This document shows positions 16,797-51,127 of a stretch of DNA of 64,000 nt, one piece after another. The DNA is taken from positions 23,353 through 87,352 of the forward strand of contig JBCCXW010000001.1 in the NCBI GenBank assembly GCA_039191105.1, given 5' to 3'. Position 1 is the stretch's first letter. Every line of letters begins with the position of its first letter. The notes below the pieces were generated by a model. The model ran no database searches. It was not told where the DNA came from and saw only the letters and a program-made list of their open reading frames with translations. Made by a program: the position numbers and the translations under genes. The stretch comes from Pseudomonadota bacterium. GTDB taxonomy: Bacteria > Pseudomonadota > Alphaproteobacteria > Caulobacterales > Hyphomonadaceae.

Positions 16797-16813
16797 AGGC
16801 CTTGCCGTAGGGA

Positions 16814-23783: not shown

Positions 23784-23793
23784 GAGCCAATCG

Positions 23794-24504
23794 GTGAAAC
23801 GCATGATCATGTCCGTAGTCCTATCGTGTTTGCCGCTGACGCTGATCTCCACACAGCCAGCGGCCGCGCAGTTCGGCTTTGGCGGGGTCGTCTATGACCC
23901 CGCCAATCACGCCCAGAATATTCTGACAGCGGTCCGGACGCTCCAACAGATCAATCAACAGATCCAGCAACTCACCCATGAAATCGAAATGCTCGAAAAC
24001 ATGGCGCGGGATCTGGAGAACCTGCCGGACAGTATTGCCGATGATATTTTACGCCGTATGCATCGCATCGATGAATTGATGCGGGAAGCCGAAGGCATCG
24101 GCTACGGCATCGAAGAAATCGAACGCGAATATGAGGTGATCTATCCAGAGGATTATGGCGCCGAGCCGCCAAGCCAGGCCGTCCTCGTCGAAGAAGCCCG
24201 CGCGCGGTGGCGTCAGTCCCGCTCAGCCTATCGCGAAAGTCTCCTGGTCACCGCAGAAGTGGTTTCAACGGCGCGCGCCGACAGTGAAAATCTCGACCGC
24301 TTGATCGGTGACAGCCAATCGGCTGCAGGAAATCTACAAGTCCTTCAAGCCGGAAATCAGATCGAGGCGCTGCAGACGCAGCAGCTCATGCAGATCGAGT
24401 CCATGATGGCCTCGCACTATCGCGCAGAAGCCTTGGAACGCGCCAGAGAGCTTGCTGAAGCCGAGCGTGGCCGCGCGCGCACCCGAAGCTTTCTCGGGAA
24501 CTAA
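23794..24504 (+). CDS. trbJ: TrbJ
   Basis: GVVYDPANHAQNILTAVRTLQQINQQI; AAGNLQVLQAGNQ; AGGAG RBS before GTG 23794. Confidence 0.9.
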   Translation: MKRMIMSVVLSCLPLTLISTQPAAAQFGFGGVVYDPANHAQNILTAVRTLQQINQQIQQLTHEIEMLENMARDLENLPDSIADDILRRMHRIDELMREAEGIGYGIEEIEREYEVIYPEDYGAEPPSQAVLVEEARARWRQSRSAYRESLLVTAEVVSTARADSENLDRLIGDSQSAAGNLQVLQAGNQIEALQTQQLMQIESMMASHYRAEALERARELAEAERGRARTRSFLGN

Positions 24505-24510
24505 TGCGCC

Positions 24511-25818: not shown

Positions 25819-26508
25819 ATGTTCAAACGATCTTCCACTTCCTATGGGCCAAGCCCGTTTCCTGAAACGCCCTACCAGAAGGCAGGTCAGATCTGGGATG
25901 AGCGTATCGGGTCGGCCCGCGTGCAGGCAAAGAACTGGCGGTTAATGGCGCTTGGCTGCCTCGGGCTTTGCTTTGTCACCTCCGGCGCGCTGGTGTGGCG
26001 GTCAATGCAATCGACCGTCACGCCCTATTTGGTCGAAGTCGATGAAACTGGCGCCGCTCGCGCCGTCGGACCTGCAACGGAACGCTACACGCCAAGCGAC
26101 GCGCAGATCGCCCATCACCTCGCAGGCTTCATAGAGAATGTGCGTGGATTATCCGTAGACCCGGTTGTGGTGCGCGAGAGTTGGCTGCGCGCCTACGACT
26201 TTGTCACCGACCGCGCATCAACAACCCTTAACGAATACGCCCAGGAGAGCGACCCTTTCGCCGATGTGGGTCGCAAGTCCCGCACCGTCGATGTGGTCAG
26301 CGTCGTGCGCGTTTCCGATGACAGTTTTCAGGCGCGCTGGATCGAGAAGGCCTATGAGAACGGCGCGTTGATCGGCGCGCAGCGCTTCACCGGCAATTTC
26401 ACCCTCATCACCCAGCCACCAACGGATGCGGAGACCCTCCGCGCCAACCCCCTTGGCCTTTATGTCCATTCCCTCAACTGGGGACAGGACCTCGTTACAG
26501 GAGAATGA
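25819..26508 (+). CDS. trbF: TrbF/VirB8
   Basis: TPYQKAGQIWDERIGSARVQAKNWR; NPLGLYV. Confidence 0.93.
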   Translation: MFKRSSTSYGPSPFPETPYQKAGQIWDERIGSARVQAKNWRLMALGCLGLCFVTSGALVWRSMQSTVTPYLVEVDETGAARAVGPATERYTPSDAQIAHHLAGFIENVRGLSVDPVVVRESWLRAYDFVTDRASTTLNEYAQESDPFADVGRKSRTVDVVSVVRVSDDSFQARWIEKAYENGALIGAQRFTGNFTLITQPPTDAETLRANPLGLYVHSLNWGQDLVTGE

Positions 26509-27506
26509 TCCCCATGCCGCGTTTTTTGATTTCCGCTTCCGCTTTGATGCTCATATCAGCCTGCGCAACGACGACTGAATTCGAACCGATTGATCCGGGT
26601 GCATTTGTAGCGGCCACCGCCGTCAACGACGATTATGACCTGCCGATTGAGATCGTTGAGACGGCCGTTGCGCTGCCCCTGCCGGGACAGATGAAAGCGA
26701 TTGAGTCGGCGCCGCCAGCGCCGCGCCTGTCACCAACACAGGCGATCAGGGAAGGCAGAGAGGGTGCGCTCATTGAGCCTTCGGTCGATGGCTATGTGAA
26801 CGCGATCCAGATTTATCCCTATACCGAAGGGGCGCTTTATCGACTGTATGCGAGCCCTGGCCAGGTTTCCGACATTGCGCTCCAACCAGGCGAAGAACTC
26901 GTTTCTGTTTCCGCGGGCGACACGGTGCGCTGGGTTGTCGGCGACACGAGTTCCGGATCCGGCGCAACGTCGCGCGCCCATGTTCTGGTCAAACCGATCA
27001 GTTCAGGCATCCGCACCAATCTGATGATCGCGACCAATCGGCGAACCTATCACCTGGAACTGGAAAGCGTATCCGGCGGCTATATGGCGGCCCTCTCATG
27101 GCGTTATCCAGCTGATGAACTCGCTGGGCTCACGGCGAGGAATGATCGCGCCATCGCTCGCGAAACCGGGTCTATCGAGCGTGGACTGACCCTTGAAGGT
27201 CTCAATTTCGACTATCGGATGAGCGGTGACAATCCTGCATGGAAGCCAGTCCGCGTCTTTGATGACGGGCGTCAGGTGTTCATCCAGATGCCAGACTCGA
27301 TCATCGCGACTGATCTACCGCCGCTCTTCGTCGTCGGCGACGATGGCGATGCCGAGCTCGTCAACTATCGCATCCGCGGCAATTATTATGTCGTCGACAG
27401 ACTGTTCCGAGCCGCCGAGCTTCGCCTTGGTGAACGGAATCAAACAGTCGTGCGGATCACACGCGTCCAACGCCGCACGGGCCTTGCAGCGATATTCGGG
27501 AGTTGA
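26505..27506 (+). CDS. trbG: TrbG/VirB9
   Basis: YPYTEGALYRLYASPGQVSDIALQPGE; VRVFDDGRQVFI. Confidence 0.93.
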   Translation: MIPMPRFLISASALMLISACATTTEFEPIDPGAFVAATAVNDDYDLPIEIVETAVALPLPGQMKAIESAPPAPRLSPTQAIREGREGALIEPSVDGYVNAIQIYPYTEGALYRLYASPGQVSDIALQPGEELVSVSAGDTVRWVVGDTSSGSGATSRAHVLVKPISSGIRTNLMIATNRRTYHLELESVSGGYMAALSWRYPADELAGLTARNDRAIARETGSIERGLTLEGLNFDYRMSGDNPAWKPVRVFDDGRQVFIQMPDSIIATDLPPLFVVGDDGDAELVNYRIRGNYYVVDRLFRAAELRLGERNQTVVRITRVQRRTGLAAIFGS

Positions 27507-27513
27507 TCGGCAG

Positions 27514-28767
27514 ATGACTGAACCGATTCCCTTCGACGAACATGCAGAGCGTTTGAAAATCCGCTCCAATCCGAAACCCGTCACACGGATCAATCGAAAG
27601 GTGTTGATGGTGGGCGCAGGTCTTGGTGTCTTAGGTCTCTTTGCGGCCATGAGCATCGCTTTGAAACCGCCCACAGCCGTCGCTCCGAATGAGCGCCGTG
27701 AACTCTACAACGTAACGAACAAGCGGACCCCCGATGGCCTTTCCACATTGCCAGCAAGCTACAGCGATGTTCGGCCTGATCCCATACCTGTACTCGGACC
27801 ACCGCTCGCGGGCGATCTGGGGGCCACAGTTCTACGGGCAGAGCGCGATCTCGGTATTGAGCCGGAATATGTACGCACCTTCGAAGATGACTTCAGGCCC
27901 AACCCGGTCGATGAAGCCGAACGCGCCCGGCGCATGCGTGAAGCTGCCCTCCAGGAAGAAGCCGCCCGTGCGCCTGTCTTTTTTCAGCTTCAATCGCAAA
28001 CAGGCAGCGAACGTGCAGCAGGCGCGACACCGACCTATCGCGACCCTGCACTCGATCTCGGGTCAGAACTTCTCGCACTCGCCTCGCTGCCGCCGGGCAC
28101 GCCGTCGGCTTTCGGGCAGGCAACTGACCCCAATCTTCAGTCGCGAAAGCTGGCTTTTGCAGGCGAAGGCGGGGGGGCGGATATCTACAATCCACACCAG
28201 ATCGAAGATCCTGCCTCGCCCTATCAGGTCATGGCGGGAACACTGATCCCGGCAAGCCTCGTCACTGGCATCAATAGTGATTTACCCGGAACGATTATCG
28301 CGCAAGTGACGCAGACCGTGTACGATACGGTCTCCGGGCGGTACGTTCTGATCCCGCAAGGCTCGCGTCTGATCGGGCGCTATCAGTCGGAAGTTTCCTT
28401 CGGTCAGGACCGAACGCTCGTGACTTGGGACCGGGTCATTTTTCCCGATGGGTCTTCTATTCAGATTTCGGCTCCCGGCGCTGATGCGCACGGCTATTCG
28501 GGTCTCTCTGATCGCACCGATCATCATTGGGATCGCGTCTTCGTGGCAGCAGGTCTTGCGACCATCTTAGGGATCGGCGCCGAACTTGGCAGTGATGGCG
28601 ACGGCGATATCGAACGCGCGATCAGGCGCGGCACGTCCGACACCGTGAATCAGGCCGGCCAACGCGTCGTCGATCGATACTTAGGCATTCAGCCGACCAT
28701 CCGTGTGCGTCCCGGCTGGCCGGTCCGCGTCATTGTCACCCGCGACCTTATTCTTCGTCCCCATTGA
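27514..28767 (+). CDS. trbI: TrbI/VirB10
   Basis: AGTLIPASLVTGINSDLPG; LIPQGSRLIG; PTIRVRPG. Confidence 0.93.
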   Translation: MTEPIPFDEHAERLKIRSNPKPVTRINRKVLMVGAGLGVLGLFAAMSIALKPPTAVAPNERRELYNVTNKRTPDGLSTLPASYSDVRPDPIPVLGPPLAGDLGATVLRAERDLGIEPEYVRTFEDDFRPNPVDEAERARRMREAALQEEAARAPVFFQLQSQTGSERAAGATPTYRDPALDLGSELLALASLPPGTPSAFGQATDPNLQSRKLAFAGEGGGADIYNPHQIEDPASPYQVMAGTLIPASLVTGINSDLPGTIIAQVTQTVYDTVSGRYVLIPQGSRLIGRYQSEVSFGQDRTLVTWDRVIFPDGSSIQISAPGADAHGYSGLSDRTDHHWDRVFVAAGLATILGIGAELGSDGDGDIERAIRRGTSDTVNQAGQRVVDRYLGIQPTIRVRPGWPVRVIVTRDLILRPH

Positions 28768-28780: not shown

Positions 28781-29017
28781 ATGTCCCTTCGTCTCCAAAA
28801 ACTCCCCGATCGAACCCCGGTGCGCATGAACCTAGCCGTCGATCCTGACCTTGCAGCAGCGCTTGCCGATTATGCTGAAATCTATCGTCAAACCTACGGA
28901 GCAGACGAAAAGCCGGAAGCACTGATCCCGGCCATGCTGGAGAGTTTTCTCAGGCAAGACGCCGGGTTCAAACGGGCGCGCAAAGCCCTTCACGCCAACG
29001 CCAGACAAGGAGAATGA
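28781..29017 (+). CDS. DUF2274-family protein
   Basis: LRLQKLPDRTPVR...LADYAEIY...LIPAMLESFL..D.GF; typical after trbI. Confidence 0.85.
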   Translation: MSLRLQKLPDRTPVRMNLAVDPDLAAALADYAEIYRQTYGADEKPEALIPAMLESFLRQDAGFKRARKALHANARQGE

Positions 29018-29322
29018 CCATGGCGACCATCGGTACATTTACAGAGAAGGACGGCGCCTACACCGGAACGATCCGTACCATGACGATAAACATCAAGGCT
29101 CAGCTCGTTCCAAACGACCACAAAGCGAGTGACGGTGCACCTGACTTTCGCCTCTATGCTGGAGGCGCCGAACTTGGTGCCGCCTGGCGGCAGGAAAGCA
29201 AAGATGGTGAGAAGCCATATCTTGCGGTGAAGCTGGACGATCCTAGCTTTGCCGGGCCTGTCCGAGCGGCGTTCTTTGAGAACGAGGCTGAAGGGACCGG
29301 CGTGATAGTCTGGAAGCGATGA
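29014..29322 (+). CDS. DUF736-family protein (second copy)
   Basis: MATIGTFT...YTGTIRT; APDFRLY; ELGAAW; YLAVKLDDPSF. Confidence 0.88.
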   Translation: MTMATIGTFTEKDGAYTGTIRTMTINIKAQLVPNDHKASDGAPDFRLYAGGAELGAAWRQESKDGEKPYLAVKLDDPSFAGPVRAAFFENEAEGTGVIVWKR

Positions 29323-29341
29323 GTCTGGCGCCTCGTTTCCA

Positions 29342-31933
29342 CTACGCCAAATGTACTTGATTGCCGCCAAGATCGCGGAATGCTCGCTGGCGGCACGATA
29401 GTACCAGTATCTGTAAATCTCCAGCCTGCCTGTGTAGAGCGTCGAACATTAACTCGATCCGATCATCATCTGTGAACACGAGCGCGTCATCGAGAATAAT
29501 TGGCGCAATTTGTCCGCGCTTCGCCAGCATTCTCGCGAAAGCGAGGCGAACCAGCAGAGAAATCTGTTCTTTGGTCCCGCCTGAGAGGATATCTATTGGT
29601 TCTTCTTGGCCATTCCGAATTAGGGACGATGGCAATAGTGTTTGGTCACCCCAGGACAGCTCTGCATCCGGCCAAAGCAGCTGAAGGAGCGGCTTTAGTT
29701 CATTGGCGACGGGTTCGAAATATCGGTCGCGGGCCTCACTGCGGGCGTCTTCCAAGACTGATTGCAGCTTTTGTAGAACGGCGACTTCCTTCTCGATCCC
29801 TGCAAGCTTAGCCTCCGCTAGCTCAAGTTGCTGTTTCGTTTCCGCCAGACGTTCCTCAACAGCCTCTTCCGCGGTTCGAGAGATATTCGCTTCTAACGCC
29901 GCGAGCGCTGGCTTTAGGCGGGCAATCTCTGACCTAGCGGCATCCTCGACAGATTGAACGCGTTTTAGCGTTGCTTCGGCAGCGCGAACATCCGGCGCGA
30001 GTTTCGCTTTTTCTGAATAAAGCGCTTCGGCGGCCTCAAGCGCAGTTACGGCGCGACTTAGCTCATCCTCAAGCCGCGCTTCGTCTGTATCGCCATGCCG
30101 CGCCAAAGCGGTTATCGCTCTTGCTTCACGCGCTTGTGCGGCCTCAAGCGCTGCATCAAGCTTTGACGATTCTGAGCGCGCGTCAGAGAAACGTTCTGTC
30201 TCGACCGTGCGGGCCGTGTCTGCCGTTAATCGATCTTCTTCCGCTTTAGCAAAGCGTGTTTCCGCATCTTCAAGGGCCGGGAAGTCTGTTTCAGCGGCAT
30301 CGAGTTGGGGAATAGCGGTGAGTATTTTGCGTAGATCTTCTATACCGTTTGGAGCAAGGGACTCAAAGATCGCATTAGTCTCAAGTCGGCTTTGTTCTGC
30401 AGTGTCGCGCTGAATAGCAGCATCGCGCGCATCGTCTATGGTCGTGCAGTCAAAACGTTTGAGTTTTTCAATCAGCGCGTTTTTCGCGGTCTCAACAGAA
30501 TCGTCTTTATGATCACCGACTCCAGGGTGGATACTTAATGTTCCGATTTGTTCGATGACCAGATCAGTATCCCCCCTTATCGACACTGGCATGTCGCCCG
30601 GGAGTTCCTCATCGTTCTGTTTGATCTTGCCTTGCCCACCCTCGGCATACCTAATGAGGAGATTTGCCGATTTGCTATCGTGGATCGCCTGCACAGTCTT
30701 TAGAGCCCCCGCGAGTTCTTCCAGCTCGCGCATGGATCGGGGATCAGGACCTTGTGCAGCCTCAGCGGCAGCTGTTTCCATGCTGACGCGAGCAGTCTCC
30801 GCCTTTTCGATGCGTTCCTTTAGCTCTTTGCGCCTTTCGGCACCATCAAGCGCTGCCTGGCGACGCAGAGAAACACGTAGCGAATCTTGCGCGGATTGGT
30901 ACTCTTCTAGCGCCTCATTAAACTCCCGCTGCGCTTTTGTGTGAGAGTCCTCGGCAGCTTTCAGGGACAGCTGGGCGGCCTCGGCGTTTTCTGCGACGGC
31001 CTGACGCGCTTCAACGGATGCGTCACGTTCCTTTAAGTCTCTACGCAAACCCTCGAGACGAGATTTAACATTTGTGACCGCAAGCCGCGCCGCATCAACT
31101 TTGCGTGCTTCTGATTCGACGGCGTCGGCATGACGCTGTGCGGCTTGCAGTTCTGCTGTGGCGTCCGCCACACGTTTCTTCCGCACAGCGCTCGCCTCGG
31201 GGCTCTCGAGTTCTTCAAGCTCACGACGCTTTCGCTTGCGTTCATCCAATTGGTCGCGAAGCTGAGCAACCTGACCGGCCAATTCGGTGTGTTGCAAACG
31301 GAGTGATTCAACATGTTGTTCCGCGTCTTTCCAGGGTCCGCCAGTTTTTGGTCGACCGCCAGCGGTCGCAAAATTGCTTAGCTCTTCTTTGCAGCGTGAC
31401 AGCGCCAGATCCATTCGTCTTCCACCTGTCATCGCTTCAACTTCTCCGGTGACAGATGAAAGCAGATCACGCCTGGCCTCAAGTGCGGCTTCTTTTTCTT
31501 TCTTTGATCCTTCCGATAAGGTGGTCAGGCCTTGCCGGACCCACAGCAGCCCCGATGGTCCGCCGTCTCCTCCACCCAAAAGTCGGCCAATCCATGACTC
31601 GGCTTCATCAGCTTGAGCAATCAATCGTCCGTCCTGCTCTATCTTGGCGGCAGGCTTTGACATCCATCTTTTTGTTATGACGAAAAGACCGGCGTCCGTC
31701 TCGACTTCGACGACGACTTCTGGCGCACCGCCAGCATGCGGGCGAAGCGCTTTAACGTCTTTATCGCTCGAGGTGTGAGCTTTGAAGAAGACCGCTTGTA
31801 GTGCATCGAACAGAGTCGATTTTCCGAACTCATTCGGCTCGCACAAAACGTTCAATCCGTCGCTCAATCCTTCTATACGAGCCGTATCCGTGAAACGCCG
31901 AACATTGGTGAGCGTGATAGATCGTATCCGCAT
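29342..31933 (-). CDS. SbcC/Rad50/YhaN-like ABC ATPase with long coiled coil
   Basis: EPNEFGKST Walker A; LSGGTKEQ signature; ILDDALV Walker B; no CxxC hook seen. Confidence 0.88.
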   Translation of the reverse strand: MRIRSITLTNVRRFTDTARIEGLSDGLNVLCEPNEFGKSTLFDALQAVFFKAHTSSDKDVKALRPHAGGAPEVVVEVETDAGLFVITKRWMSKPAAKIEQDGRLIAQADEAESWIGRLLGGGDGGPSGLLWVRQGLTTLSEGSKKEKEAALEARRDLLSSVTGEVEAMTGGRRMDLALSRCKEELSNFATAGGRPKTGGPWKDAEQHVESLRLQHTELAGQVAQLRDQLDERKRKRRELEELESPEASAVRKKRVADATAELQAAQRHADAVESEARKVDAARLAVTNVKSRLEGLRRDLKERDASVEARQAVAENAEAAQLSLKAAEDSHTKAQREFNEALEEYQSAQDSLRVSLRRQAALDGAERRKELKERIEKAETARVSMETAAAEAAQGPDPRSMRELEELAGALKTVQAIHDSKSANLLIRYAEGGQGKIKQNDEELPGDMPVSIRGDTDLVIEQIGTLSIHPGVGDHKDDSVETAKNALIEKLKRFDCTTIDDARDAAIQRDTAEQSRLETNAIFESLAPNGIEDLRKILTAIPQLDAAETDFPALEDAETRFAKAEEDRLTADTARTVETERFSDARSESSKLDAALEAAQAREARAITALARHGDTDEARLEDELSRAVTALEAAEALYSEKAKLAPDVRAAEATLKRVQSVEDAARSEIARLKPALAALEANISRTAEEAVEERLAETKQQLELAEAKLAGIEKEVAVLQKLQSVLEDARSEARDRYFEPVANELKPLLQLLWPDAELSWGDQTLLPSSLIRNGQEEPIDILSGGTKEQISLLVRLAFARMLAKRGQIAPIILDDALVFTDDDRIELMFDALHRQAGDLQILVLSCRQRAFRDLGGNQVHLA

Positions 31934-33060
31934 TATTCCGCCTCCTTAATATATGCGTAGAGGCGCGACAGTGCTCCGGCCGAAACAGACCGCTCATCGG
32001 TCGAGAGTGTTTCAGATTCTGCGTCATCTTTTAGTCGGTTTGCAGCCAGCCGAAGGGCACCTGCTTTGTCGATCTCGTCGATGTCAGCTTCATCATACGT
32101 CGTGCCAAGATCATCCAAGTTGAGATCCATGAACCCGAAATCCGCCCCCAGACGCTCCGACGCCTGGCGCAGCTCCGCCTGTTGCGCGAGACTGGACCAT
32201 CCTGTTGCTCTGACACGCATCAAGGCATTTCGCTGGTTATCTTCAGGAAGAATACCTTCGAATGCTTCGACTGCGTCGGCCTCCGGCAAAAGCGGGAGTT
32301 CGGTCTTGGCCCATAGGAACTCTCCGGTTTCGATTTCATCGATCTCGGGTTCCGCCCCAGGGGCTACGATTGATACGGCGAGGCAAACACCTCGCTTGCC
32401 ATGTTTGAAGCGATCTTGCTCTGGGCTACCGCTATAATGTGTTCGGGGGCTGACAGCGACGCGGCCGTGCCAATCGCCGAGCGCTAGATAATCGAGCCCT
32501 GCGCTTCGATCTCTGTCAGGCGGAATGTGACCACCACTGTCGGTGAAATCGACGACGCCCGCATGAGCGAGGCCAATTCGTATATCGCCATCGCCGGTCT
32601 GCATTGATGCGAGCTCAGCGGTTGGATCTCGTCCCGATGAACGAAAGGCGACAGGGCACGGCAATAGCTGAACACCCGCGCTTAACTCGATCGGTGCGTT
32701 ATCCGCAATAAGCTGGACGTTTTGTGGGGCGTCTCGCAAAACCTTATCCCAAAGAGGTTCTGCATCTCTGAGGTTGTCATGGTTGCCCGGTATGATCCAC
32801 CAGTAGACATCGGTGCAATCTGCCATAGCCGTCAGGGCTTGTTGAACGATCGACGCCGAAGGCGTCGCCGTGTCGAATGTATCTCCAGCGAGCAGAATGT
32901 GGTTCGCGCCTCGCTCACGCGCGACTTTCGCCAAACGCGATAACGAGGCGTGTCGTGCCTCCATTAGCCGTCCACGAATGTTTCCGTCTGGCGGTTGGGG
33001 AATATTAGAGAACCGACGTCCTAAATGTAGATCAGATGTATGGATAAATCGAAAGCTCAT
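31933..33060 (-). CDS. SbcD/Mre11/YhaO-like metallophosphoesterase nuclease
   Basis: HTSDLHLG, AGDTFD, PGNHD, LAHAG, LALGDWHG; stop shares a base with the ATPase start. Confidence 0.9.
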   Translation of the reverse strand: MSFRFIHTSDLHLGRRFSNIPQPPDGNIRGRLMEARHASLSRLAKVARERGANHILLAGDTFDTATPSASIVQQALTAMADCTDVYWWIIPGNHDNLRDAEPLWDKVLRDAPQNVQLIADNAPIELSAGVQLLPCPVAFRSSGRDPTAELASMQTGDGDIRIGLAHAGVVDFTDSGGHIPPDRDRSAGLDYLALGDWHGRVAVSPRTHYSGSPEQDRFKHGKRGVCLAVSIVAPGAEPEIDEIETGEFLWAKTELPLLPEADAVEAFEGILPEDNQRNALMRVRATGWSSLAQQAELRQASERLGADFGFMDLNLDDLGTTYDEADIDEIDKAGALRLAANRLKDDAESETLSTDERSVSAGALSRLYAYIKEAE

Positions 33061-33194
33061 CCTCGCCCCCAATAAAGTTGAATTTGAATAAAAGAAACTT
33101 CAAAACACTATAGACGGTTTTGTGCTTTTGCGGTGAACGGCGTTTGGCACAAGTCGTAAAAGGGTGCGGATGACTTGGATTGGGAAGTATGGAT

Positions 33195-33563
33195 TCAACT
33201 TTCATCTTCGACCTCTTGTGGCCGACCGCCTTTACACCAATCAACACGACCTTCTTTCACCCAGAAATGACATCCGCACGAATTTTGCTGATGCACAGAC
33301 GGCGTTATGGTCGGACGCCGCCACCAATCGAGAGATACACGCCAGTACGGGCGCCTATTTGGGTTGAGCGATAGCTCAATTCGTTGACCGCACCCTCCGG
33401 GACATGGAAAAGCGGCCCATTTGGATACGCCGTCGGGACGAACCAGAATGAACTCATTGAGCCCACCTGTTTCTCGAGCCGGCAACTGCGGATGTATTGA
33501 AGCAACAAGATCACCTTTAAGAAGACCGAGCCTTTTGAGGAATCGAAAGAACGCTGTCTTCAT
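33195..33563 (-). CDS. DUF6527-like Cys/His metal-binding protein
   Basis: WAAFPCPGGCG...PTITPSVH...CGCHFWVKEGRVDWC; ATG 33563 is 1 nt after the E1 stop. Confidence 0.75.
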   Translation of the reverse strand: MKTAFFRFLKRLGLLKGDLVASIHPQLPARETGGLNEFILVRPDGVSKWAAFPCPGGCGQRIELSLNPNRRPYWRVSLDWWRRPTITPSVHQQNSCGCHFWVKEGRVDWCKGGRPQEVEDES

Positions 33564-33564
33564 T

Positions 33565-34965
33565 TCAGAGCACCATGTTAAGTAGGGGTTCAATATCGCC
33601 GCGCCCCAGCGTCTCAGGTGTCTCACAGGCTGGACAACCATGCATTCGTTCGATGAGGGGGAAGCGATCGTCGCACGCATGGAATCGGCGGATGCGGGTT
33701 GGCCGCATACCGTCGTGACCGTGGAACCCTGTGATCGCGGCAAGAAGTTCGTTTACCGCCATGCACGCCGCTTCCGTCGTGAAAGTCACAACCGCTGGCG
33801 ATGGATCACCTTCTCCGAGAACATATGCCTCCTCTTTCAATAAGGCATAGCTATCCGGGTCTCGACGTTTCAGCGCCTCTTCACTGGCCCGCCTCGGGTC
33901 AATATGGCCTCCGCAAATAAGGCAAGGATGTCCGTCGACAAGTGTCGATGTACGAGCAAAAAGATCGAAGCTGCCGGTTTCACGCTTCTGCATTGCCAAG
34001 CCAACGTCTATCACGGGGATTGAGTAGAACCGGCTGAAACGATTGAGCACCAAGCGTCCGGCGTGATCATCCGTGCACGAAAATACAATATCGCACGCCT
34101 TTAGCGCCTCGACACTGCCTGGGTCGCCGACGAATGCGTCAATTGTGACGAGGCGCATACCAAGATTGGTTTCTGCCACAGTCCGACTGTGAACGTCAGA
34201 CTTACGGGCGCGGTTTTCCGCATCAATACGTCGAGCGCCATGAAGACGATTGAGGTTTGAGTGCTCGACTATGTCTTTTTCAAGAAGAAGCGCATCGCAA
34301 ACGCCAAGCCGCATTAGTAAAGCGAGTACCGCGCTTCCCGTGGCTCCGCCGCCGGCGATGCCGATACGCAGCGAGGCGATAAGTTCGTTCGCAGCATCAC
34401 CGAACAAGCGAGCCTGCCGGTCTAAATAGTCTATGTTGGACTGCGATTTATCCGTATTTGACAGGCTGACTCGGGCGCCTACGTGGAAAATGCGATCAAT
34501 GGACTCGTACGTGTTTGCACTAGTCCAAACCCGCGCCAATATCTGCTCATCGCCGGTAATCACAATACTGATGAATCCTCGGCATCCTTTTAGGAATGCC
34601 GTGCGCGCGAGCTCGGCTTCGTTCTTGTCATCTTGCGCAGAAAAAGCCGCAGGACCGTTTGGGTGAGTATGGACAATTCCGGGGACGAAGCCTTCGTCAC
34701 TCGCCCGACCAAAGAGGCGCATAAGACTATCTGTCCCCCAGGTGATGTGGGCGGGAGAAGCGTCGACCAGTTCATGCTCTTTGATCGGAACTACAACATG
34801 ACTCATCAAGCGTCGGCGCGGCATGTTTGACCAAGGATCACAGCTGATTTCAGCGGACCCGAAAAGCATCGTCGCCGCCGCCTCATTCCCGCCGTCCGCG
34901 GCGAGGAGCGACTTGATCGCTTCGCCGTGCACGGCTTGTAGTATGATATCAACGGTTGCCATCAT
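33565..34965 (-). CDS. JAB/MPN+ peptidase fused to ThiF/E1-like adenylase
   Basis: JAB: E27 and HTHPNGPAAFSAQD (HxH-x7-S-x2-D). E1: GGGATGS, DIVEHSNLNRL, SCTDDHAGR, CLIC...CPAC zinc site. Confidence 0.9.
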   Translation of the reverse strand: MMATVDIILQAVHGEAIKSLLAADGGNEAAATMLFGSAEISCDPWSNMPRRRLMSHVVVPIKEHELVDASPAHITWGTDSLMRLFGRASDEGFVPGIVHTHPNGPAAFSAQDDKNEAELARTAFLKGCRGFISIVITGDEQILARVWTSANTYESIDRIFHVGARVSLSNTDKSQSNIDYLDRQARLFGDAANELIASLRIGIAGGGATGSAVLALLMRLGVCDALLLEKDIVEHSNLNRLHGARRIDAENRARKSDVHSRTVAETNLGMRLVTIDAFVGDPGSVEALKACDIVFSCTDDHAGRLVLNRFSRFYSIPVIDVGLAMQKRETGSFDLFARTSTLVDGHPCLICGGHIDPRRASEEALKRRDPDSYALLKEEAYVLGEGDPSPAVVTFTTEAACMAVNELLAAITGFHGHDGMRPTRIRRFHACDDRFPLIERMHGCPACETPETLGRGDIEPLLNMVL

Positions 34966-35891
34966 GCGCCTGCCGAAGCCAGTGCGACCTGAACACGCGC
35001 GATCATCGTTTGGAGCCCATCAATCCCTGGGCGCCAAGCCTGACAATGCCGCGACCAGCGTTGCCATGACCGCCCTGCGAAATTGTGGGCGACATTAGCC
35101 GCACGCGGTTCGCGTCCGCTGACCGACAGGCGCAGCCAGGGTGAGGCATAGAACATATCTGGAGCGATATCTGGGTAGCCTGCGGGCAGAATGATCAGGA
35201 TGTCTGCCGTTTCATGATCATATTTTCCCGCGGGCAGCGGGAATGCCTTCAGAATGACCCCTGGAGTGGTTCCGTGTTCGACAATATCGAATGTCAGGTT
35301 ACGGCTCTCCAGATACTGAAGATCGGAGGACGGGATAAGCTCCCGTCCCTCCGTTGTTTGATCAATGATTGAGATGAAACGCTCTACGCCGGGCTTATCC
35401 AAGTCGATAAGATCGCAATCATCGATTTTCTGGTCGTGCCCGCCCGGCACGTCGAGCCACAACGCATAGTTGGCTGCAAGCGAGGCCAGTTTTTTCAAAA
35501 CGAAGCCTGTGATGAAGCGCCGCGGCCATTCGAGGTCACGGTCGTCAATCTTGAACAAGTATTTCCGATCAGTTCGGGCGACAAGAATGCGCTCTGCTCC
35601 GCGACCCCGAAGATCATAAGGCTCATCGAGACGAATATCTTCGAAGTCCCCGTTGGGCAGGATCGCGATCGCGACGTACTCATGAACAGGCGCTCCGCCC
35701 GTCACTTCAATCAGTTGACGACCGAGTGGAAGCGGATCGTCGAGAACGAATGGTGAGAAGCTGAGGGTCTCATTTGCGATTTGCACACGAAAGCGCCGTC
35801 TTGGCTTCAACGGCCGACCAGCGTGAACCGCTTCAGCGAGATCGTCGATATCTGGCTCATCGCCGTTTTGGGGGGAATTAAGGGAGTCCAT
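34962..35891 (-). CDS. Two multi-ubiquitin-like domains fused to a prokaryotic E2 (family E-like)
   Basis: Repeated D.LDL...G.ERF/I Ubl motifs; internal TTEG (aa 179-182); E2: LPAGYPDIAPDMFY, WQRWSRH, WRPGIDGL. Confidence 0.85.
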   Translation of the reverse strand: MDSLNSPQNGDEPDIDDLAEAVHAGRPLKPRRRFRVQIANETLSFSPFVLDDPLPLGRQLIEVTGGAPVHEYVAIAILPNGDFEDIRLDEPYDLRGRGAERILVARTDRKYLFKIDDRDLEWPRRFITGFVLKKLASLAANYALWLDVPGGHDQKIDDCDLIDLDKPGVERFISIIDQTTEGRELIPSSDLQYLESRNLTFDIVEHGTTPGVILKAFPLPAGKYDHETADILIILPAGYPDIAPDMFYASPWLRLSVSGREPRAANVAHNFAGRSWQRWSRHCQAWRPGIDGLQTMIARVQVALASAGA

Positions 35892-35907
35892 TTGATTTTC
35901 CTTCTTG

Positions 35908-35937
35908 CTGAGGGAAGCCTCATGCTTCCGCTCTCAG
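35908..35937. repeat. Bulged hairpin between helicase and Ubl-E2 genes
   Basis: CTGAG/GGAAGC-CTCAT-GCTTCC/(GCT)/CTCAG. Confidence 0.5.
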
Positions 35938-35972
35938 AAGGGCAATCGCGTCGGTTTCGAAGAACCGGTAAG

Positions 35973-38900
35973 CTAGTTGAGATTTTTTTTCGTCAGGACC
36001 CCGGTTGGTGCCTCACCGCAGATAAAAAAATGAGGACAGCGTGGACATGTGCGGTCTGGTTTGGGCGGAAAGCGACCGTCGGCAATGGCTTTTCCGGCTT
36101 CGCCGATACGCTCGCGCCGGGTCTGCAGCTTCTTGTCGGTCAGATTAACATCTGACACGTCTGCATCAGCCAAGAAGACAAACTGAACATCGGCATGGTG
36201 CCCAACAGCCAGTTGATAAGCCGCTGCATCAAGACTGTCCGTCGCTTTTGAAGTCTTTCTGCCGGTCCATATGCGCCGCACGACGGTTCTGCCATCTGAC
36301 GTCCGAACTTTTTCATGCGGCGTAACAACGATTCTTGCAACGCCGAGATCAATTTCGAGGTCCGCCGCCTCTATGGTCTCGTCACCATCTTTTAAAGCCA
36401 GCAGCACATCGAACAGGCGTGTCGCCGCAGACTTGTAAAACGACGCATTTGGGTCATCCACAGGCCCCCGACTTTGCCAAAATTTGTCGAAGTCGAGAGC
36501 GGTATCAGGCTCGGCCAGAAGTGCGTCGACCGCACCCTGCACGGCCCCGTGCATCTTCATGAAAGGTGTTTCAGTTCGTCGGCCCCCGAGTCGAAGGACA
36601 TGTGTGTACAGAAAGCGGCGGGGACACTTCTCGTAAAGAGCCAGTTGAGACGGCGTAACAGCAAGTTTTTCGTCGAACCGAAGGTCGATGTTTAGCCCGC
36701 TCAGGTCGACGTCATCAGGCGCAGCGATGGGTGGTTGCCTAGTAACGCTTGATCCGAGACGCTCGATAAAAGGGGAGGGTTTTTGATTTCGCCCTCCTTT
36801 CTGTTTGGTTGGCGCATATAGCAGAAGATCATCTTCGGCGCGTGATAACGCCACGAAGAAAAGACATTCTTGTTCTTCTTCGTGTCCTGACTTCAGCGCA
36901 TCGAGGCCGGAGCCCTGGACCCCTTCGATCATTCCATCTGGCGGAGGTAGAGCATTCATTTGATTAGCAGACTGAGGGATGGATGCGGCAGTTAACGAAG
37001 GAACGTGGACGGCTTTGAACTCGAGTCCCTTGCTTTTGTGGATCGTAAGTAGGTTTACCGCATCGAGCGCTTGCGCCGCGTCGGGTAGATCACGCAAATC
37101 GCGTTCATCTGATAGGATGACAAGACGACGGATATGATCAAGCAGGTTACTGGTTGGATACCCTCGACTATCCAAGCGGACAGTACGGAGGAAATTCTGC
37201 AACTGCCATAACGCTATAGCTGGCAATGGCGCTCCATTTAGCAATTCACCGGCATATTCAGCGGCCAACCGCGTATGGTCCAGATAAAGTGATGCAAAGG
37301 CTCGCCATGGTGTCGTACCGGGTTCGAACCCGTTATATGCGCCGCTGAGGTTCCGAAAGGTGTCACGACCCGCTTCGGAAATCTGCCCCTCGCTTGGGAG
37401 AAGGGATCTCCACTGCAAAGGCTCCAGGGATGAAGCTTCGGAGAGTACTTTGGCTGCGGCTGCGACATCGTCGATAGAAATTGGGAAAGCCGAACTCGTT
37501 GCTATTTTGGCTATTCCCATTGCTCTCGGATCAACAAGCAGCGATAGAAACGAAAGCGCTTCTTTTACTTCTGCACGGTCGAATAAAGGGCCAAGGAATA
37601 GGACGGGAATTCCGCGCGCATCGAGATTAGCGGCAATCTCAGCTAATCGATCATTGGCCTTGCATAGAACCGCTTGATCACGAAACGCGCAGCCACTTTC
37701 CCGTTTTTCGCGGATTCTTGCGGCGAGTTCGTTTAGCTCATCATTCTTTGTACCGACCTCTACATAGGAAGGCGTGACACCGGAAGCACCACGCTCGGCG
37801 ATCGCTTCGAAACCGACTTCCGCAGCTCGCATGTCGCACTTTGCGAAACCAGCGAAGGCGTCGCAAATTTCCTGGGTTGAACGATAATTCGTGGACAGGT
37901 TCTTTATGACGCCGCCGGAAAAATCCGTGTCTCCAAAACGTTCCATATTGATCGAAGAAGCTCCGCGGAAGCGATAGATGGATTGTTTCGCATCGCCTAC
38001 GACCCAGAGCCCGTCTCCGCTCGGTTTGAGCGCGGTCAACAGCCTAACGCTGGCGCGATTGACGTCCTGATACTCGTCGACAAGCACATGTTCGAAACGC
38101 GCTTGAAGCTGCTCGCGTACGATTTTGTCACTCTCTAACAGCGCAACAGCTCGCGCCACCAAGTCACCAAAGTCGAGTATGCCATGTTCAGCTTTTAGCG
38201 CTTCGTATGCGGAGTAGACTTTTGAGATCTCCGTGCATTTTTCGCCAAGCAAACGGGCATCGTCATTCCCGGCGGTGTCGAGCATCGTTTTCGCGAGCGC
38301 AGCGTATTGCTCATGATCAACCACCTCGTCTTTGGCGCGAGAAATCGCCGCCAATAGGTCCCGCAGTTTGTCAGTTGGATCGCGAAGCTCGCGGAAATGC
38401 TCTAGTTCAAGGCGAACATATTCGTTTTCGAGGAGCGCTACTGCTTCCGCAGTGTCTACAAGCCTGGGATCTTCTGGCAGTCCGGCGCGGTCGCTAAATC
38501 GCCTCAAGAGATCGAGACCAAACGAATGAAACGTGCCGAGGGTGATCTCGCCAGCGGCTTCGGGCCATATAGAGAGGGCACGCTCGCTAAGTTCGCCAGC
38601 CGCTTTGTTCGAGAAAGTCAAAACAAGAATTGAACTGGGGTCGACGCCTTGGCTTTTTAGAACGCTCAGCCTGCCGATGAGCGTTTGTGTTTTTCCAGTG
38701 CCGGGCCCCGCGCGCAGAAGAAGAGGGCTTCCATTATGGTTCGCCGCATCTGCCTGTTCAGAGTTGAGCGGCTTTGGAGGGCGCTTTTCAGTGGGCGTAA
38801 TTTTTAAAGCTGGAAGCCAAAGAGCATCGAATAGTTGAACGGCAACCATGTCGTAAGGGGCACCCAAACACTCAGCAATCTCCTTTGCGGTTCGTCCGTC

Positions 38901-39356
38901 TTCAAGGTGCCAGCTCCGCGCAAGAGTGCGTGGAAACAAGAACTCACGCGCGAAGAGGTCCATTTGAACCTCCTGTCGGGCTTTCTGGCTGTAGTCTACG
39001 ACACGCTCCGCGCCAGACGCGTCGGTCCCATCGCTCGATCGTGCAGGGTCGATGTCTGTGGACGGCGCGAACATCACATGCCCGCCAAATTCAGCATGTC
39101 CTATTTCATGCGCAACGAAGAACGCGTTGATAAAGCTATCGCTGGTGTCTTCGTGGCGGATCGTGCCGGCAGGATCGTAGAGCGCCCGCCCGCCATCCAG
39201 CATTTCATGGCCCGCTGGATAGATGCGAACTTCTATGTCTCGACGCCGCGCTTCTTTAAGGACGAACGCATACGGATCGGTTGGATCGCCGCCCGCCGCA
39301 ACAATCTCCGCGTGCAGCTCGGCGGCGCGTTGGCGGATAAGCTCAATTTGAGCCAT
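35973..39356 (-). CDS. ImmA/IrrE metallopeptidase + UvrD/PcrA helicase + degenerate PD-(D/E)XK (Fe-S) domain fusion
   Basis: AHEIGH...[14 protein letters not shown]; [55 protein letters not shown]; CPRRF...[10 protein letters not shown]. Confidence 0.92.
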
Positions 39357-39906
39357 CAGATTGCGCGAGGCGACTTAAGGCGGCCTCTTCTTCCGATGTT
39401 AAGGCGAGTCCTTCGATGAACGCAGCGTAATCCATTTGCTCCGCCCGAGCGGGCTTCCCATCAGCTTTGAACGCTAAAGCGGGACCAGTGGCATCACCGC
39501 TGGATAAATAACGAACAAAGTCATGAAGACGCACACCGATCATTCGCGAAAGGCCCGAAAGCACTGGCTCCGGCGTCGATCCAAAACGAATACGTCGGTC
39601 GCGAAAGCCTGCCAGAAAGTCTCGCGGCAAACCAATCTGTTTGGCTAATTCGCGAATGCCTTCGTTTGAAAATGCCGCTTGCAATTTTCCTACAGCAACC
39701 ATCTGGGGCTGCGCTGATTTCGTCTCGAAGCGAACCTCCTCCGCACCCGCGCGCGCTTCCGCTAAAGTGATTTCATGGAATAAATCGGTGAGCTCAATGG
39801 CGAGATCGGGATATCGGTCAATGTATGTTTTGAGGAGGGCGTGAGAGATTTCTTCCTCCATCGTGAACTCCTCAAAAACGTCTTCTGGATCAAGGTTCGG
39901 GCTCAT
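39343..39906 (-). CDS. Hypothetical protein with central XRE-like HTH (candidate anti-sigma/repressor)
   Basis: [16 protein letters not shown]-terminus; [23 protein letters not shown]-like segment; overlaps both neighbours. Confidence 0.55.
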
Positions 39907-40715
39907 TTCTTCACCTCGATTCCAAGCTCTTCGCGAATTGTTTTGAAAGCGCTTTTGCGGCGGTTTCTGACCGTCTTGTCGGTGCAGCCGAGGATTTTAG
40001 AGATCGACGGATCGCCAGGAGCTTTAGCTTGGTCTTGAATTCCGGCTTCCTGCATATCGAGTATTCTCCTTTCGTTCTCCGGGAGTTTGTCAATCGCAGC
40101 ACGGAGCTGAAACCGGTAAGTCACTGTTTCTTCCGGCGTCATATTAGATGGGCTGTAGCGATCAAGACTCTCTTCAACCTCCGACGGGACGTCGCCCGTT
40201 TCATCGTACTCTAGCGGCGTGAGCGGTTTGTTCTTGCCATAGACTTTGCGCCCCGCGCTTGCCCTGAGCTTGGCAACAGCGCGATCGAACACAACCTCAA
40301 AGATATCAAGCCGCTCTTCATAGCTTTGTCGGTCTTGAAGAATAAGCATGGTGAAGCGCTCTAGGACGTTTTCTTGAAGGTCGGCTAAGGTGCCAATTTC
40401 CCCGATGCCGCCTGCAATCGTAACGTCTTTTTGCGGACACACGCGCCTTATTCGATCTTCGAGAATTTCGAATAGCAGGCCAAATCCCACTTCTGAATTG
40501 TGCTGCCGCGTCAGTCTTAAACGATGGACCAAGAGTTCCGACGGCACGTAGTCAGGTGACTTTCGATTGTGGTTTTTCGCTCTGTCGGCCAATTCATTGA
40601 TTGGTAACGCGGCGAATTCTTGGAGCAGCTTTTCGGTCCTAGGCAGCCGTTTGTACGGCTCTCCAGTTTTTCTGACTTTTCGGAGTGGCGGTGGTTCGTA
40701 GGTCGTGTCAGCCAT
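39903..40715 (-). CDS. Divergent sigma-70/ECF-like factor
   Basis: Region-4-like IDKLPENERRIL...ISKILGCTDKTVRNRRKSAFKTIR; alternative start 40760. Confidence 0.7.
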   Translation of the reverse strand: MADTTYEPPPLRKVRKTGEPYKRLPRTEKLLQEFAALPINELADRAKNHNRKSPDYVPSELLVHRLRLTRQHNSEVGFGLLFEILEDRIRRVCPQKDVTIAGGIGEIGTLADLQENVLERFTMLILQDRQSYEERLDIFEVVFDRAVAKLRASAGRKVYGKNKPLTPLEYDETGDVPSEVEESLDRYSPSNMTPEETVTYRFQLRAAIDKLPENERRILDMQEAGIQDQAKAPGDPSISKILGCTDKTVRNRRKSAFKTIREELGIEVKK

Positions 40716-40958
40716 GTTCTGCCCATCAGTATGAACATCAAGAATTGAAGGGCGTAACACTCCGATGTTTGTATTTGGACGGCATTACACGCGGAGTGAG
40801 TTTAGTTCGATTCTCGATCGACACGCGCGATTTATTTCAGAGTACTTCGTCTTTCGATCGTTGTCTAAATAGCAGGCGCTGAAGTTGATTGCCCTCCGTC
40901 CAACCCGAAAAATACGACTACGCGGCAATCTAAAAACGGCTCCGTGAGGTCTCAATGA

Positions 40959-41058
40959 TCGTGCGCCAAATCACGCCCCAGAACGTGTCCCAAATTTCGA
41001 GAAACCGAATCTACAAAATTGTTTTTATTATATATTTGTTGAATTATCGAGCGCATCG
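40959..41058 (+). repeat. att-like direct repeat, copy A
   Basis: Ungapped 100-bp match to 49547-49646, including exact AATTGTTTTTATTAT and TTATCGAGCGCATCG. Confidence 0.85.
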
Positions 41059-41187
41059 TCCGACTAGATTCTATAGTGATCACCACGATCAATAGACTGC
41101 TCTAAACGTATACAAAACAACGTCCTTGCTCGATTGCGAATAAGCCGAACAGCAGTGATTTCGTAGAACGCAAGCACGACTTCGAAC

Positions 41188-44100
41188 TTATATCACGCGC
41201 CTATGCGGAGCTTCGGCCAATGCATGTTGAGTGTCCGGATTTGGCGCGAACCAGCGGTGCAAAGCTGGCAAGACCAGAAGCGTAAGCACAGTCGATGACA
41301 CTAGCCCGCCGATAACAACAGTCGCGAGCGGTCTTTGCACTTCAGCGCCGACGCCGGTTGCAAACAATAAGGGCGCGAGTCCCAGCGCTGTAGTCATTGC
41401 CGTCATAAGCACCGGCCGTGCCCGCAATCCTGCCGCTTCAATAGCAAGTTCGTCGCGGTCGCGGCCTTCGCGCGCAAAACCATCCATAAAACTCACCAGC
41501 ACCATCCCGTTGCCGAGTGCGATGCCGAACAGGGCGATGAAACCGACGGTCGCAGGCACGGACACCGGCTGACCGGTCAGCCAGAGCGCCAGCGCGCCGC
41601 CGGTGAGCGCCAGCGGGATGTTAAGCAGGATCAGGATTGCAGATTTCAAGCGCCCGAACGCCAAAAGCAGCACAAGCAGAACGATGCCGAGTGTGATCGG
41701 AATGACGACGGCGAACCGGGCATTGGCCTGCTGCTGGAGTTCAAACTGTCCGCCCCACTCGACTCTGTATCCAGCTGGAAGATCAAGCGCAGCGTCGGTC
41801 GCTGCCTGAGCGTCGGCGACAAAGGAGCCGATGTCTCGTCCGCGGACATTCAGTTGAACGGTGATAAACCGCTCGCCATTCTCTCGCGTGATCTGCCGGG
41901 GACCAATCACCTCACGGATGTTGGCGACCGAAGATAGCGGCACCTGCGCCCCGCTTTCGCTTTTCAAAATCAGACGACCAATCGTTTCGGCGCTGTCGCG
42001 GCGGTCTTCTTCAAAACGGACAATGACCGGGAACTGGCGTACGCCCTCAAACAACGATCCGGCTTCCGCGCCGCCGACGGCCGCGCGCAGCGTATCCAGC
42101 GCGTCCTCGACCGTGAGGCCGTACCGTCCAAGTGCGGTCCGGTCGACGGAAACGACCAGTTGCGGTGCACCGGTGATTTGATCCGCCTGCACATCACTCG
42201 CGCCCGAGACGCCTTCGAGAATCTGTTGCAGGTCCTGCGAGCCTTCCAGAAGAATATCGGCGTCAGGCCCGAAGATTTTTACGGCGAGCTGGGCCTTAGT
42301 CCCGGTGAGCAGTTCGTCGACAGACATGGCAATCGGCTGACCGATATTTACCCGTATGCCGGGGAAGCTTTCGAGGTCTTGGGATATTGCGGCGCGCAGC
42401 GCATCTGGGGACAGCCCGGATCGCCACTCGGAACGCGGTTTCAGCGCGACAAAGGCTTCGATGCTGTTGACGGGATCAGCATGAGCGCCGACCTCGCCGC
42501 GCCCGATCCGGCTGACAACCGACTCGATTTCCGGAAAGCGGTCGAGCAAGCGGCGTTCCACTCGCGTCGATGTCTCCCGCCCCTCTGTCAGCGAGATCGA
42601 TGGCGCCATAGTGACCCGCAGCAGAATATCGCCTTCCTCAAGGGCGGGCGTGAACTCCGAACCGAGACGGGAACCGGCGAGACCGCCCACCAGAAGCAAG
42701 CCGATGGCGAGCGCCACGGCGGCAAGCCGCACACGGATGAAAAAGGCTGCGAGCGGCTTTACAAGGTCGGCTATCCTACCGCCGTCAGACGTCTGCTGTT
42801 TCGGAGGCTTTATCAGTCCATACGCCATCGCGGGCGCAATCAGGGCAGCGTAAATCAGTGAACCCGTCATGGCGAGCGCGGCGGCAGCCGCCAGCGGTCG
42901 GAACGTCTTGCCTTCCACGCCCTGCAGTGAAAACAGCGGCAGGAAGACGATGATGACAACAGCAACCGCGGCGATCAGCGGTGCGATCACTTCAGCGGTC
43001 GCGCGCGCGATCACATCGCGGTCAGTTTCATCGGGCCGCCGCTCGCGGAATCGCCGGTCGGCATTTTCAGCGATGACGATCGCACCGTCTACCATCATGC
43101 CAATGGCGATCGCGACGCCGCCGAGCGACATCAAATTGGCGCTAATCCCCAGCATGCCCATGGCGATGAAGGCGAAGCCGACCGAAAAAGGGATCGACAT
43201 GACGACGACGAGACTGGGCCGCCAGCCGCCGAGGAACAGGAACACAATCATCGCGACCAGCAAGGCGCCCTGCCAGAGCGCTGTCGTGACGGTGGATGCT
43301 GCACGCTGAACCAGCGTGCCCTGATCATAATAGGGCACGGCGCGGACGCCATCCGGCAATGCCGCGTTGATTTCGTCAAACCGGGCATGGGTGCGCTCAA
43401 TGACATCGGAGGTATTGGTGCCATAGAGTTTGAGCACCAGTCCCGCGACTGTCTCGCCTTCGCCATTGGCTGTGGCAAGCCCCTGACGCGCGCCGCCGCC
43501 AATGGCGACGGTTCCAAGATCACTGACGCGCACGGTCCGCCCGTCTACGGCTTTAACCGGGGTCTCAGCGAGATCGGCGATGGAACGCGCAAGCCCAACC
43601 CCGCGCACGGTATATTGCTCAGCGCCAACTTCGATGAACTGGGCGCCGGTTGTGCGGTTAGCGCTCTCCAACGCGCCGATCACATCCGCAACCTGCAGGT
43701 CATAGGCGATCAGAAGATCAGGATTGAGGCGGACCTGATACTGCTTTTCGAAACCGCCCAAGGCGAGAACCTCAGTGACGCCCTCGACCGATTGCAGCGG
43801 ATACTTGATCATCCAGTCAGCGATCTCGCGCAATTCCGTGAGATCATAATCGCCGGTCTCATCGACCAGGCGGAAATACATGATGATGCCGAGCCCGGTT
43901 GAAATCGGTCCCATTTTCGGGGCGCCGAAGCCATCCGGAATGCCTTCGGCCGCTTCCGGCAGGCGCTCGCCGACAACCTGGCGAGCGAAATAGACGTCCG
44001 TGCCGTCCTTAAAATAGACGTTCACAATGGATAGGCCGAAATTGGAGACCGAACGAACCTCTTCGACATTCGGCAGGCCGGACATGGCGGTCTCGACCGG

Positions 44101-51041: not shown

Positions 51042-51127
51042 TGCTGTCTTTTGCCAGGTCTGCGCATAAATGTTAGCTACGCCATTGAGCAAAGCCCGGC
51101 AAACCTGCCGCAGATTTGGACCGATTT

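Follow-up and report, generated by a model that had tools for sequence, protein, structure and literature searches.

Type I Bub operons (bacterial ubiquitination-like; formerly 6E.1/DUF6527) have been defined in two Corbett-lab preprints, including that of Ye, Gong, Chambers and Corbett (2024; 10.1101/2024.11.21.623953; hereafter Ye et al.), and a trio of genes coding for BubAB, BubCD and BubE in an alphaproteobacterial contig very probably constitutes another operon of this type. The trio lies in a 64,000-nucleotide (nt) stretch of a genome of the Hyphomonadaceae (assembly GCA_039191105.1, contig JBCCXW010000001.1, positions 23,353 to 87,352), and the whole of this stretch is referred to here as the window. 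ATP-dependent conjugation of BubA, a ubiquitin-like protein (Ubl), via oxyester intermediates has been demonstrated for the Citrobacter and Escherichia coli Bub systems, and Ye et al. contrast this chemistry with the thioester of canonical ubiquitination.

The Citrobacter proteins provide the biochemical reference for the locus. When Citrobacter BubAB is combined with BubCD or with the isolated JAB domain the wild type cuts it, whereas E28A and D104A substitutions prevent cutting; by Edman sequencing, the bond cleaved is the one immediately C-terminal to a conserved glycine, G229 (Ye et al.). Conjugation is abolished by the E1 substitution Y370F and by the E2 substitutions S333A/H335A (Ye et al.), and the intermediates are taken to be oxyesters because both the E1 crossover Tyr and the E2 Ser/His are required. 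In BubB, S333 and H335 form the catalytic pair with D299 as a third residue, and BubE strips conjugates through a Ser-His protease activity that S92A/H102A mutants lack (Ye et al.).

In the window, consecutive and co-oriented genes carry Pfam matches to Multi_ubiq (twice) plus Prok-E2_E, to Prok-JAB plus ThiF, and to DUF6527. The features of the three genes are as follows.

34962..35891, minus strand: bubAB, coding for a Ubl2-E2 pre-protein of 309 amino acids (aa); open reading frame and Pfam
7 nt 5' of the ATG at 35891, minus strand: AAGGA, the bubAB ribosome-binding site, read from the sequence
35574..35795, minus strand: beta-grasp domain 1, about residues 33-106; Pfam Multi_ubiq (43-106), AlphaFold2 (AF2) secondary structure and alignment to the first beta-grasp of 8u38/9d59
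35364..35561, minus strand: beta-grasp domain 2, about residues 111-176; Pfam, phmmer against the PDB, and AF2
35346..35357, minus strand: T179-T180-E181-G182, the predicted JAB cleavage site; conservation, AF2 and the starts of stand-alone E2 genes
34965..35345, minus strand: the BubB E2 domain, residues 183-309; Prok-E2_E and Citrobacter BubB (9eae)
35046..35054, minus strand: S280-R281-H282 within WQRWSRH, the predicted E2 catalytic Ser/His; conservation, with QRWSRH identical in 9eae
33565..34965, minus strand: bubCD, coding for a JAB peptidase-E1 fusion of 466 aa; Pfam Prok-JAB and ThiF
34630..34671, minus strand: JAMM motif H99-x-H101-x7-S109-x2-D112, with the predicted catalytic E28 upstream; translation
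33823..33825, minus strand: Y381, the E1 crossover-loop tyrosine equivalent to Citrobacter Y370 (the oxyester carrier); alignment of ergYitg with eeaYvlg
33195..33563, minus strand: bubE, coding for a DUF6527 serine protease of 122 aa from the ATG at 33563; Pfam DUF6527 (E = 1e-23)

We propose the following pathway, and our high confidence is a single judgement on the operon identity and on the cleavage and conjugation steps together. BubAB and BubCD would be made from overlapping genes, and the JAMM site of BubCD (E28, H99, H101, S109 and D112) would cut BubAB after G182, yielding equal amounts of BubA (residues 1-182, two beta-grasps with a free C-terminal Gly) and BubB (residues 183-309, the E2), such that G182 would be the reactive end of mature BubA. 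The E1 portion of BubCD would adenylate G182 and carry BubA as an oxyester on Y381, from which it would pass to S280 of BubB with the aid of H282 and D245. BubB would then transfer BubA to a lysine of some target, and BubE (S89/H99) would strip the modification. The first-pass annotation of this DNA had already arrived at JAB cleavage after G182 with 1:1 release of Ubl and E2; this is supported by homology with Citrobacter, and as far as sequence can show, none of the three refuting conditions set in that annotation applies. The idea is right and not new, cleavage having been demonstrated in Citrobacter. The finding itself amounts to an independent re-derivation of a published mechanism and to a further Type I Bub operon, one whose Ubl has the less common two beta-grasps (Ubl2, 7% of Bub Ubls; Gong et al.).

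Comparison with described systems places the locus closest to the Type I Bub operon of Citrobacter sp. RHBSTW-00271 (PDB 9ea4, 9eae, 9eav and 9d59). The two have the same three genes in the same order and with the same fusions, and share the junction Gly, the QRWSRH sequence, the JAMM residues, the crossover Tyr, and the BubE Ser-His dyad and Cys ligands; the window operon differs in having two beta-grasps in its Ubl rather than three, a shorter linker after the Gly, and 28-40% identity. BubAB of Phaeobacter inhibens (P0096) is 61% identical to that of the window, and Table S1 of Ye et al. gives this organism a Type I Bub operon with a Ub+E2 fusion and no regulator. Type II Bub operons, composed of BubA, a BubBD E2-E1 fusion and BubE, share the Multi_ubiq Ubl (at most 62% identity to residues 1-182), the E1 and BubE, but have a separate Ubl gene, a DUF6791-type E2 fused to E1, and no JAB; the window instead has Ubl-E2 and JAB-E1 fusions. 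The Type I/II Bil (bacterial ISG15-like) anti-phage operons also have a JAB able to expose the Ubl C-terminus, but they encode four separate proteins and no DUF6527 protein, unlike the fusions and the DUF6527 gene found here, and PADLOC returns no model match for BubAB or BubE. The Cap2 (E2-E1) and Cap3 (JAB) proteins of Type II CBASS share an E1-type adenylation domain and a JAB that acts on a conjugated C-terminus, but what is conjugated there is a CD-NTase and not a Ubl; the window locus has neither a CD-NTase nor an effector, and BubCD matches the PADLOC E1-E2 (Cap2-like) models weakly (E = 1e-7) and Cap2 (7tsq) with E = 9e-7. Eukaryotic ubiquitin precursors (polyubiquitin and ubiquitin-ribosomal protein fusions) are linear and are cut after the C-terminal Gly by deubiquitinases before activation, whereas in the window the Ubl is joined to its cognate E2, and the predicted processing enzyme is part of the same protein as the cognate E1.

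The Ubl-E2 junction of BubAB

The bubAB reading frame is on the minus strand, the strand having been left out of the first-pass annotation. Two beta-grasp repeats had been proposed for the N-terminal half of its product, followed in the same frame by an E2-like domain, and both parts are borne out by several methods. Multi_ubiq is matched in two stretches (E = 4e-28) and Prok-E2_E over residues 187-306 (E = 3e-44), with no stop or restart between them in the translation, where TTEG forms residues 179-182 at nt 35346-35357 as originally read. In phmmer searches of the PDB the Ubl part (residues 31-175) matches the multi-ubiquitin structures 8u38, 9d5b and 9d59 (E ~1e-31), and the E2 part matches Citrobacter BubB (9eae/9eav; E = 4e-10). 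An AF2 model made with 43 homologues as input has a mean pLDDT (predicted local distance difference test score) of 87 and shows an E2 fold at residues 188-306, preceded by two beta-grasp units at about residues 33-106 and 111-176; residues 180-183 are the sole stretch besides the N-terminus with pLDDT <50. Foldseek aligns the N-terminal half of the model with 8u38 (E = 5e-17) and the C-terminal half with Citrobacter BubB (9eae_C; TM score 0.85, root-mean-square deviation 1.6 Å).

The junction is strongly conserved in an alignment of 120 BubAB homologues with 48-100% identity. T179, E181 and G182 are identical in all 120 and T180 in 119, and the alignment column directly after G182 is an indel or variable. 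This conservation of TTEG is far beyond chance; the first-pass annotation had named it as a test of the cleavage idea, and G182 does not vary in the set.

A second line of evidence comes from relatives in which the two parts are encoded apart, a split at this point having been suggested earlier as something to look for among homologues. An exhaustive search with the E2 part (residues 183-309) gave 150 cluster representatives, 128 of which align from close to the beginning of the query and so have a placeable junction, and 87 of the 128 are stand-alone E2 proteins with a first Met that aligns 0-16 residues from R183. Many of these open with M-S-F-L-P-E-x-D, aligned to R-E-L-I-P-S-S-D of BubAB, and Table S1 of Ye et al. 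likewise contains Type I Bub operons with Ubl and E2 as separate genes. The split at the junction is seen only in these more distant E2 relatives and in the published table: among 175 close-relative matches there is no separate two-domain Ubl gene ending at TTEG, the short matches being either truncated at contig ends or Type II BubA proteins with three domains and a terminal Ser. Between one and three domains precede the E2 in the fused relatives, and a junction motif (TTEG, TTAG, STEG, FTEG, INPG or IEG) is present in most, not all, of the distant ones.

The closest unfused relatives of residues 1-182 are the stand-alone three-domain Type II BubA proteins (P0123-P0145; loci L081 and L082), with C-termini of the form ...TDKS or ...TVQS and not Gly, and BubA of E. 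coli ZDHYS365 (9cd2) aligns to the same type of tail. Because these relatives end in Ser, a C-terminal Gly may not be universal across Bub pathways.

Predicted processing and conjugation

The ATG of bubCD overlaps the bubAB stop codon (ATGA), and the ATG of bubE at 33563 is one base past the bubCD stop; a longer bubE reading frame from a TTG at 33743, which overlaps bubCD, was rejected as an unlikely start. BubCD matches Citrobacter BubCD (9ea4) over residues 9-425 (E = 6e-23). Its JAB motif reads H99-T-H101-PNGPAAF-S109-AQ-D112, an exact match to the intact HxH-x7-S-x2-D that had been reported for the JAB adjacent to BubAB. E28, H99, H101, S109, D112 and Y381 are kept in at least 95% of 79 BubCD orthologues from related genomes, and E28 and D112 are the counterparts of the Citrobacter residues needed for cutting (E28 and D104). 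In BubE the S89/H99 dyad, ten residues apart, and the four Cys of the predicted Cys4 zinc finger (54, 58, 96 and 98) do not vary among 75 orthologues; a search of solved structures in the PDB gave no meaningful match to BubE.

The presence of BubE with apparently intact catalytic residues raises the question of which peptidase acts at the junction, as Citrobacter BubE cuts a linear fusion of BubA to green fluorescent protein after the BubA C-terminus in vitro (Ye et al.). BubE could then mature BubAB at G182, alone or redundantly with the JAB, which would be mainly a deconjugase. Citrobacter BubE needed 48 h for its reaction, however, whereas BubCD cut BubAB in 30 min (Ye et al.). Moreover, the published Type II operons typically lack a JAB and have an unfused BubA, whereas Type I operons with the fusion carry one, a pattern that the two Type II loci examined here fit; a JAB present with the fusion and absent without it is what is expected if the JAB serves to process the fusion. 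It thus seems unlikely that BubE is the maturing enzyme, and we favor cleavage by BubCD.

A further alternative, to which we give still less credence, is that BubAB works uncleaved, with its beta-grasps acting as adaptor or regulatory modules of the E2 and not as a transferable modifier. Tandem Ubl domains are non-transferable modules in some eukaryotic enzymes, such as USP7, which is among the Foldseek matches of BubAB, and the cleavage of the window protein is itself a prediction. Against this, the Gly of TTEG is invariant within a linker that is disordered in the AF2 model, related operons encode the Ubl and E2 apart with the split at the junction, and in Citrobacter both the cleavage of BubAB and the attachment of BubA to proteins have been shown (Ye et al.). 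That two genes were joined artificially during assembly or annotation, or by a recent mutation fusing their frames, has a negligible probability and is ruled out by the occurrence of the fused frame in at least 120 protein clusters and at least 80 genomes from several phyla.

Cleavage by BubCD followed by oxyester-based conjugation also fits the residues of the E2 and E1 active sites. Among the 120 BubAB homologues S280 and D245 are present in all and H282 in 119, and W279-S280-R281-H282 together with D241/D245 are invariant or almost so. The QRWSRH sequence is identical in Citrobacter BubB, with S280/H282 equivalent to S333/H335 and D245 to D299. None of the 120 homologues reveals a conserved Cys in the E2 domain (C283 is found in 12 only), and in the 79 BubCD orthologues there is no conserved Cys between C351 and C444, the only conserved ones near Y381 being the CxxC pairs 348/351 and 444/447. 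The E2 and E1 are thus predicted to be of the oxyester type (Ser280 and Tyr381), lacking a conserved catalytic Cys, and therefore not components of a classical thioester cascade. This absence of catalytic cysteines from the cascade is one point overlooked by the first-pass annotation.

Domain content, gene order, and the conservation of the junction and of every residue named are observed in this analysis, and by homology we infer that the window proteins act like those of Citrobacter. Several points weigh against this extrapolation. Identity to the Citrobacter proteins is modest (~28% for the E2, ~40% for the Ubl, and the E-value of 6e-23 for BubCD), and the linker after the Gly is about eight residues shorter. 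The two beta-grasps of the window Ubl align to the first two of the three in Citrobacter, where it is the third that was crystallised on the E1 (Ye et al.), and docking of the C-terminal beta-grasp on the E1 and JAB sites is for this reason assumed; beta-grasp 2 would be expected to dock on the E1 because it is the C-terminal Ubl domain. BubE of the window has Ala51 where 72 of the 75 orthologues have Cys, and Tyr73 where 71 of the 75 have Arg, although its Ser-His dyad and remaining Cys residues are intact.

A conserved upstream module

The bub genes are the downstream half of a conserved six-gene cassette, which merits an evaluation of its own and is more interesting than the cleavage finding. 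The upstream features are the following.

35973..39356, minus strand: protein of 1127 aa with an M78 (IrrE/ImmA-type) peptidase, a UvrD-like superfamily 1 (SF1) helicase and a C-terminal PD-(D/E)XK-like domain; Pfam and synteny
39343..39906, minus strand: protein of 187 aa with no family match, and with a conserved LGLPRDF segment and an AFKAD-KP motif
39903..40760, minus strand: sigma-70/ECF (extracytoplasmic function)-like protein of 285 aa, with sub-threshold region 4 matches
35943..35968, minus strand: bipartite motif CCGGTT-N14-GCGATTG, ~50 nt 5' of the bubAB ATG
40091-40116, minus strand: second copy of the bipartite motif, inside the sigma-like gene and ~185 nt 5' of the 187-aa gene
~35913-35929, minus strand: leader hairpin GGAAGC-ATGAG-GCTTCC, between the motif and the bubAB ribosome-binding site

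Synteny was compared in the best 80 genomic relatives of 428 matched genomes (loci L001-L080), which span Alpha-, Beta- and Gammaproteobacteria, Verrucomicrobia, Acidobacteria, Planctomycetes and Nitrospirae. The bubAB-bubCD pair is present in all 80 loci and bubE in 77. A homologue of the M78-UvrD protein is found in 77 of the 80, and it is upstream and co-oriented in all save L048 and L079, where it is located downstream on the opposite strand; the sigma-like protein is encoded in 69 loci and the 187-aa protein in at least 50.

The HExxH motif (H83, E84 and H87), the helicase motifs, and C911, C1104, C1107 and C1113 of the M78-UvrD protein are conserved across 67 orthologues. The residues that these orthologues share include no evident canonical D...D/ExK nuclease motif, and the C-terminal domain may bind DNA and not cut it. 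A profile of the 187-aa protein compared with the PDB gave only insignificant matches to SinR-type helix-turn-helix proteins (E = 0.5), so that a helix-turn-helix nature is not established, and NCBIfam has no family for this protein, BubAB or BubE.

The bipartite motif conforms to a consensus TT(A/T)CCGG(T/A)-N14/15-(G)CGATTG on the coding strand across loci. It is present ~50 nt 5' of bubAB in 63 of 78 loci, and within the 3' portion of the sigma-like gene, at an identical codon position, in 52 of 67; across loci 137 matches are on the coding strand and 18 on the other. The window holds exactly two copies compared with 0.15 expected by chance, and a generic sigma-70 promoter and terminator scan of positions 29000-41300 gave nothing above the shuffled expectation. 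The two copies are a candidate promoter pair for the cassette's own sigma-like factor. The leader hairpin is retained in other clades with different, compensating sequences, and could be an RNA element or an operator.

These upstream genes take the place of CapH+CapP, CapW or CapK+CapS and are a further difference from the Citrobacter Type I operon. Literature searches, the two Bub papers and the CapK/CapS paper yielded no description of a link between the M78/UvrD helicase-protease and Bub. The synteny and the motifs are observed, and the regulatory roles are those that we infer. We tentatively suggest, as a possibility that falls somewhat short of an even chance, that in this clade Bub is the output arm of the six-gene cassette, with a control module of its own (the sigma-like factor, the 187-aa protein and the M78-UvrD protein as sensor) and two dedicated CCGGTT-N14-GCGATTG promoters, one 5' of the 187-aa gene and the other 5' of bubAB. 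Arming would then take place at two levels, transcription, through a switch that acts by proteolysis or senses DNA, and BubAB itself, through its cleavage by the JAB.

Ye et al. could not demonstrate phage protection for any Bub operon and left the targets of conjugation to future work, and a 2026 paper still states that protection is undemonstrated. The upstream linkage offers a concrete lead to the trigger of Bub, which is probably a signal from DNA ends or DNA damage, and perhaps also to the modified target; the helicase-protease or its binding partner could itself be that target.

The association of the module extends to Type II Bub. The sigma-like, 187-aa and M78-UvrD block also adjoins some Type II operons, L082 among them, with the promoter-like motifs present as well; the loci covered for the linkage as a whole are L001-L080, L082 and L084-L087. 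L082 holds both copies of the motif, and has an SbcCD-like gene pair with the same upstream module. When 400 genomes of the same phylum were searched with the helicase-protease as seed, six orthologues were found, none of them in the same genus, with neighbours that are Type I Bub in one instance, Type II Bub in three, BubA-like plus ThiF in one, and DUF7665 plus a weak ThiF match in one. In the last of these (L090, genome G220) the helicase-protease gene is followed by genes for a DUF7665 protein and a 546-aa protein with a weak, sub-threshold match to ThiF, and in L091 (genome G368) by genes for a weakly BubA-like protein of 272 aa and a ThiF protein of 482 aa. Both operons may, from their gene content, be further variants of Bub-like conjugation systems.

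Neighbouring genes

Directly 3' of bubE is a pair of minus-strand genes (29342-33072) coding for an SbcD-like protein of 379 aa and an SbcC/Rad50-like protein of 863 aa. SbcD-like matches occur in 8 of the 80 loci and SbcC-like matches in 6, not all of them adjacent. The pair was considered as a part of the system and rejected, and since it is found in only 6-8 of the 80 loci and in one Type II locus (L082), we regard it as a facultative neighbour.

No tRNA genes are present in the window, and two genomes of the same genus lack the Bub cassette. The regions 9556-28767 and 49624-52998 of the window encode DUF3363, the TraG coupling protein, TrbE, TrbL, TrbG/CagX and TrbI, together with HipA, a tyrosine integrase and a MobA/VirD2 relaxase. 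Given these Trb genes, TraG, integrase and relaxase, the cassette is located beside a Trb-type conjugation gene cluster, and it may be cargo of an integrative conjugative element.

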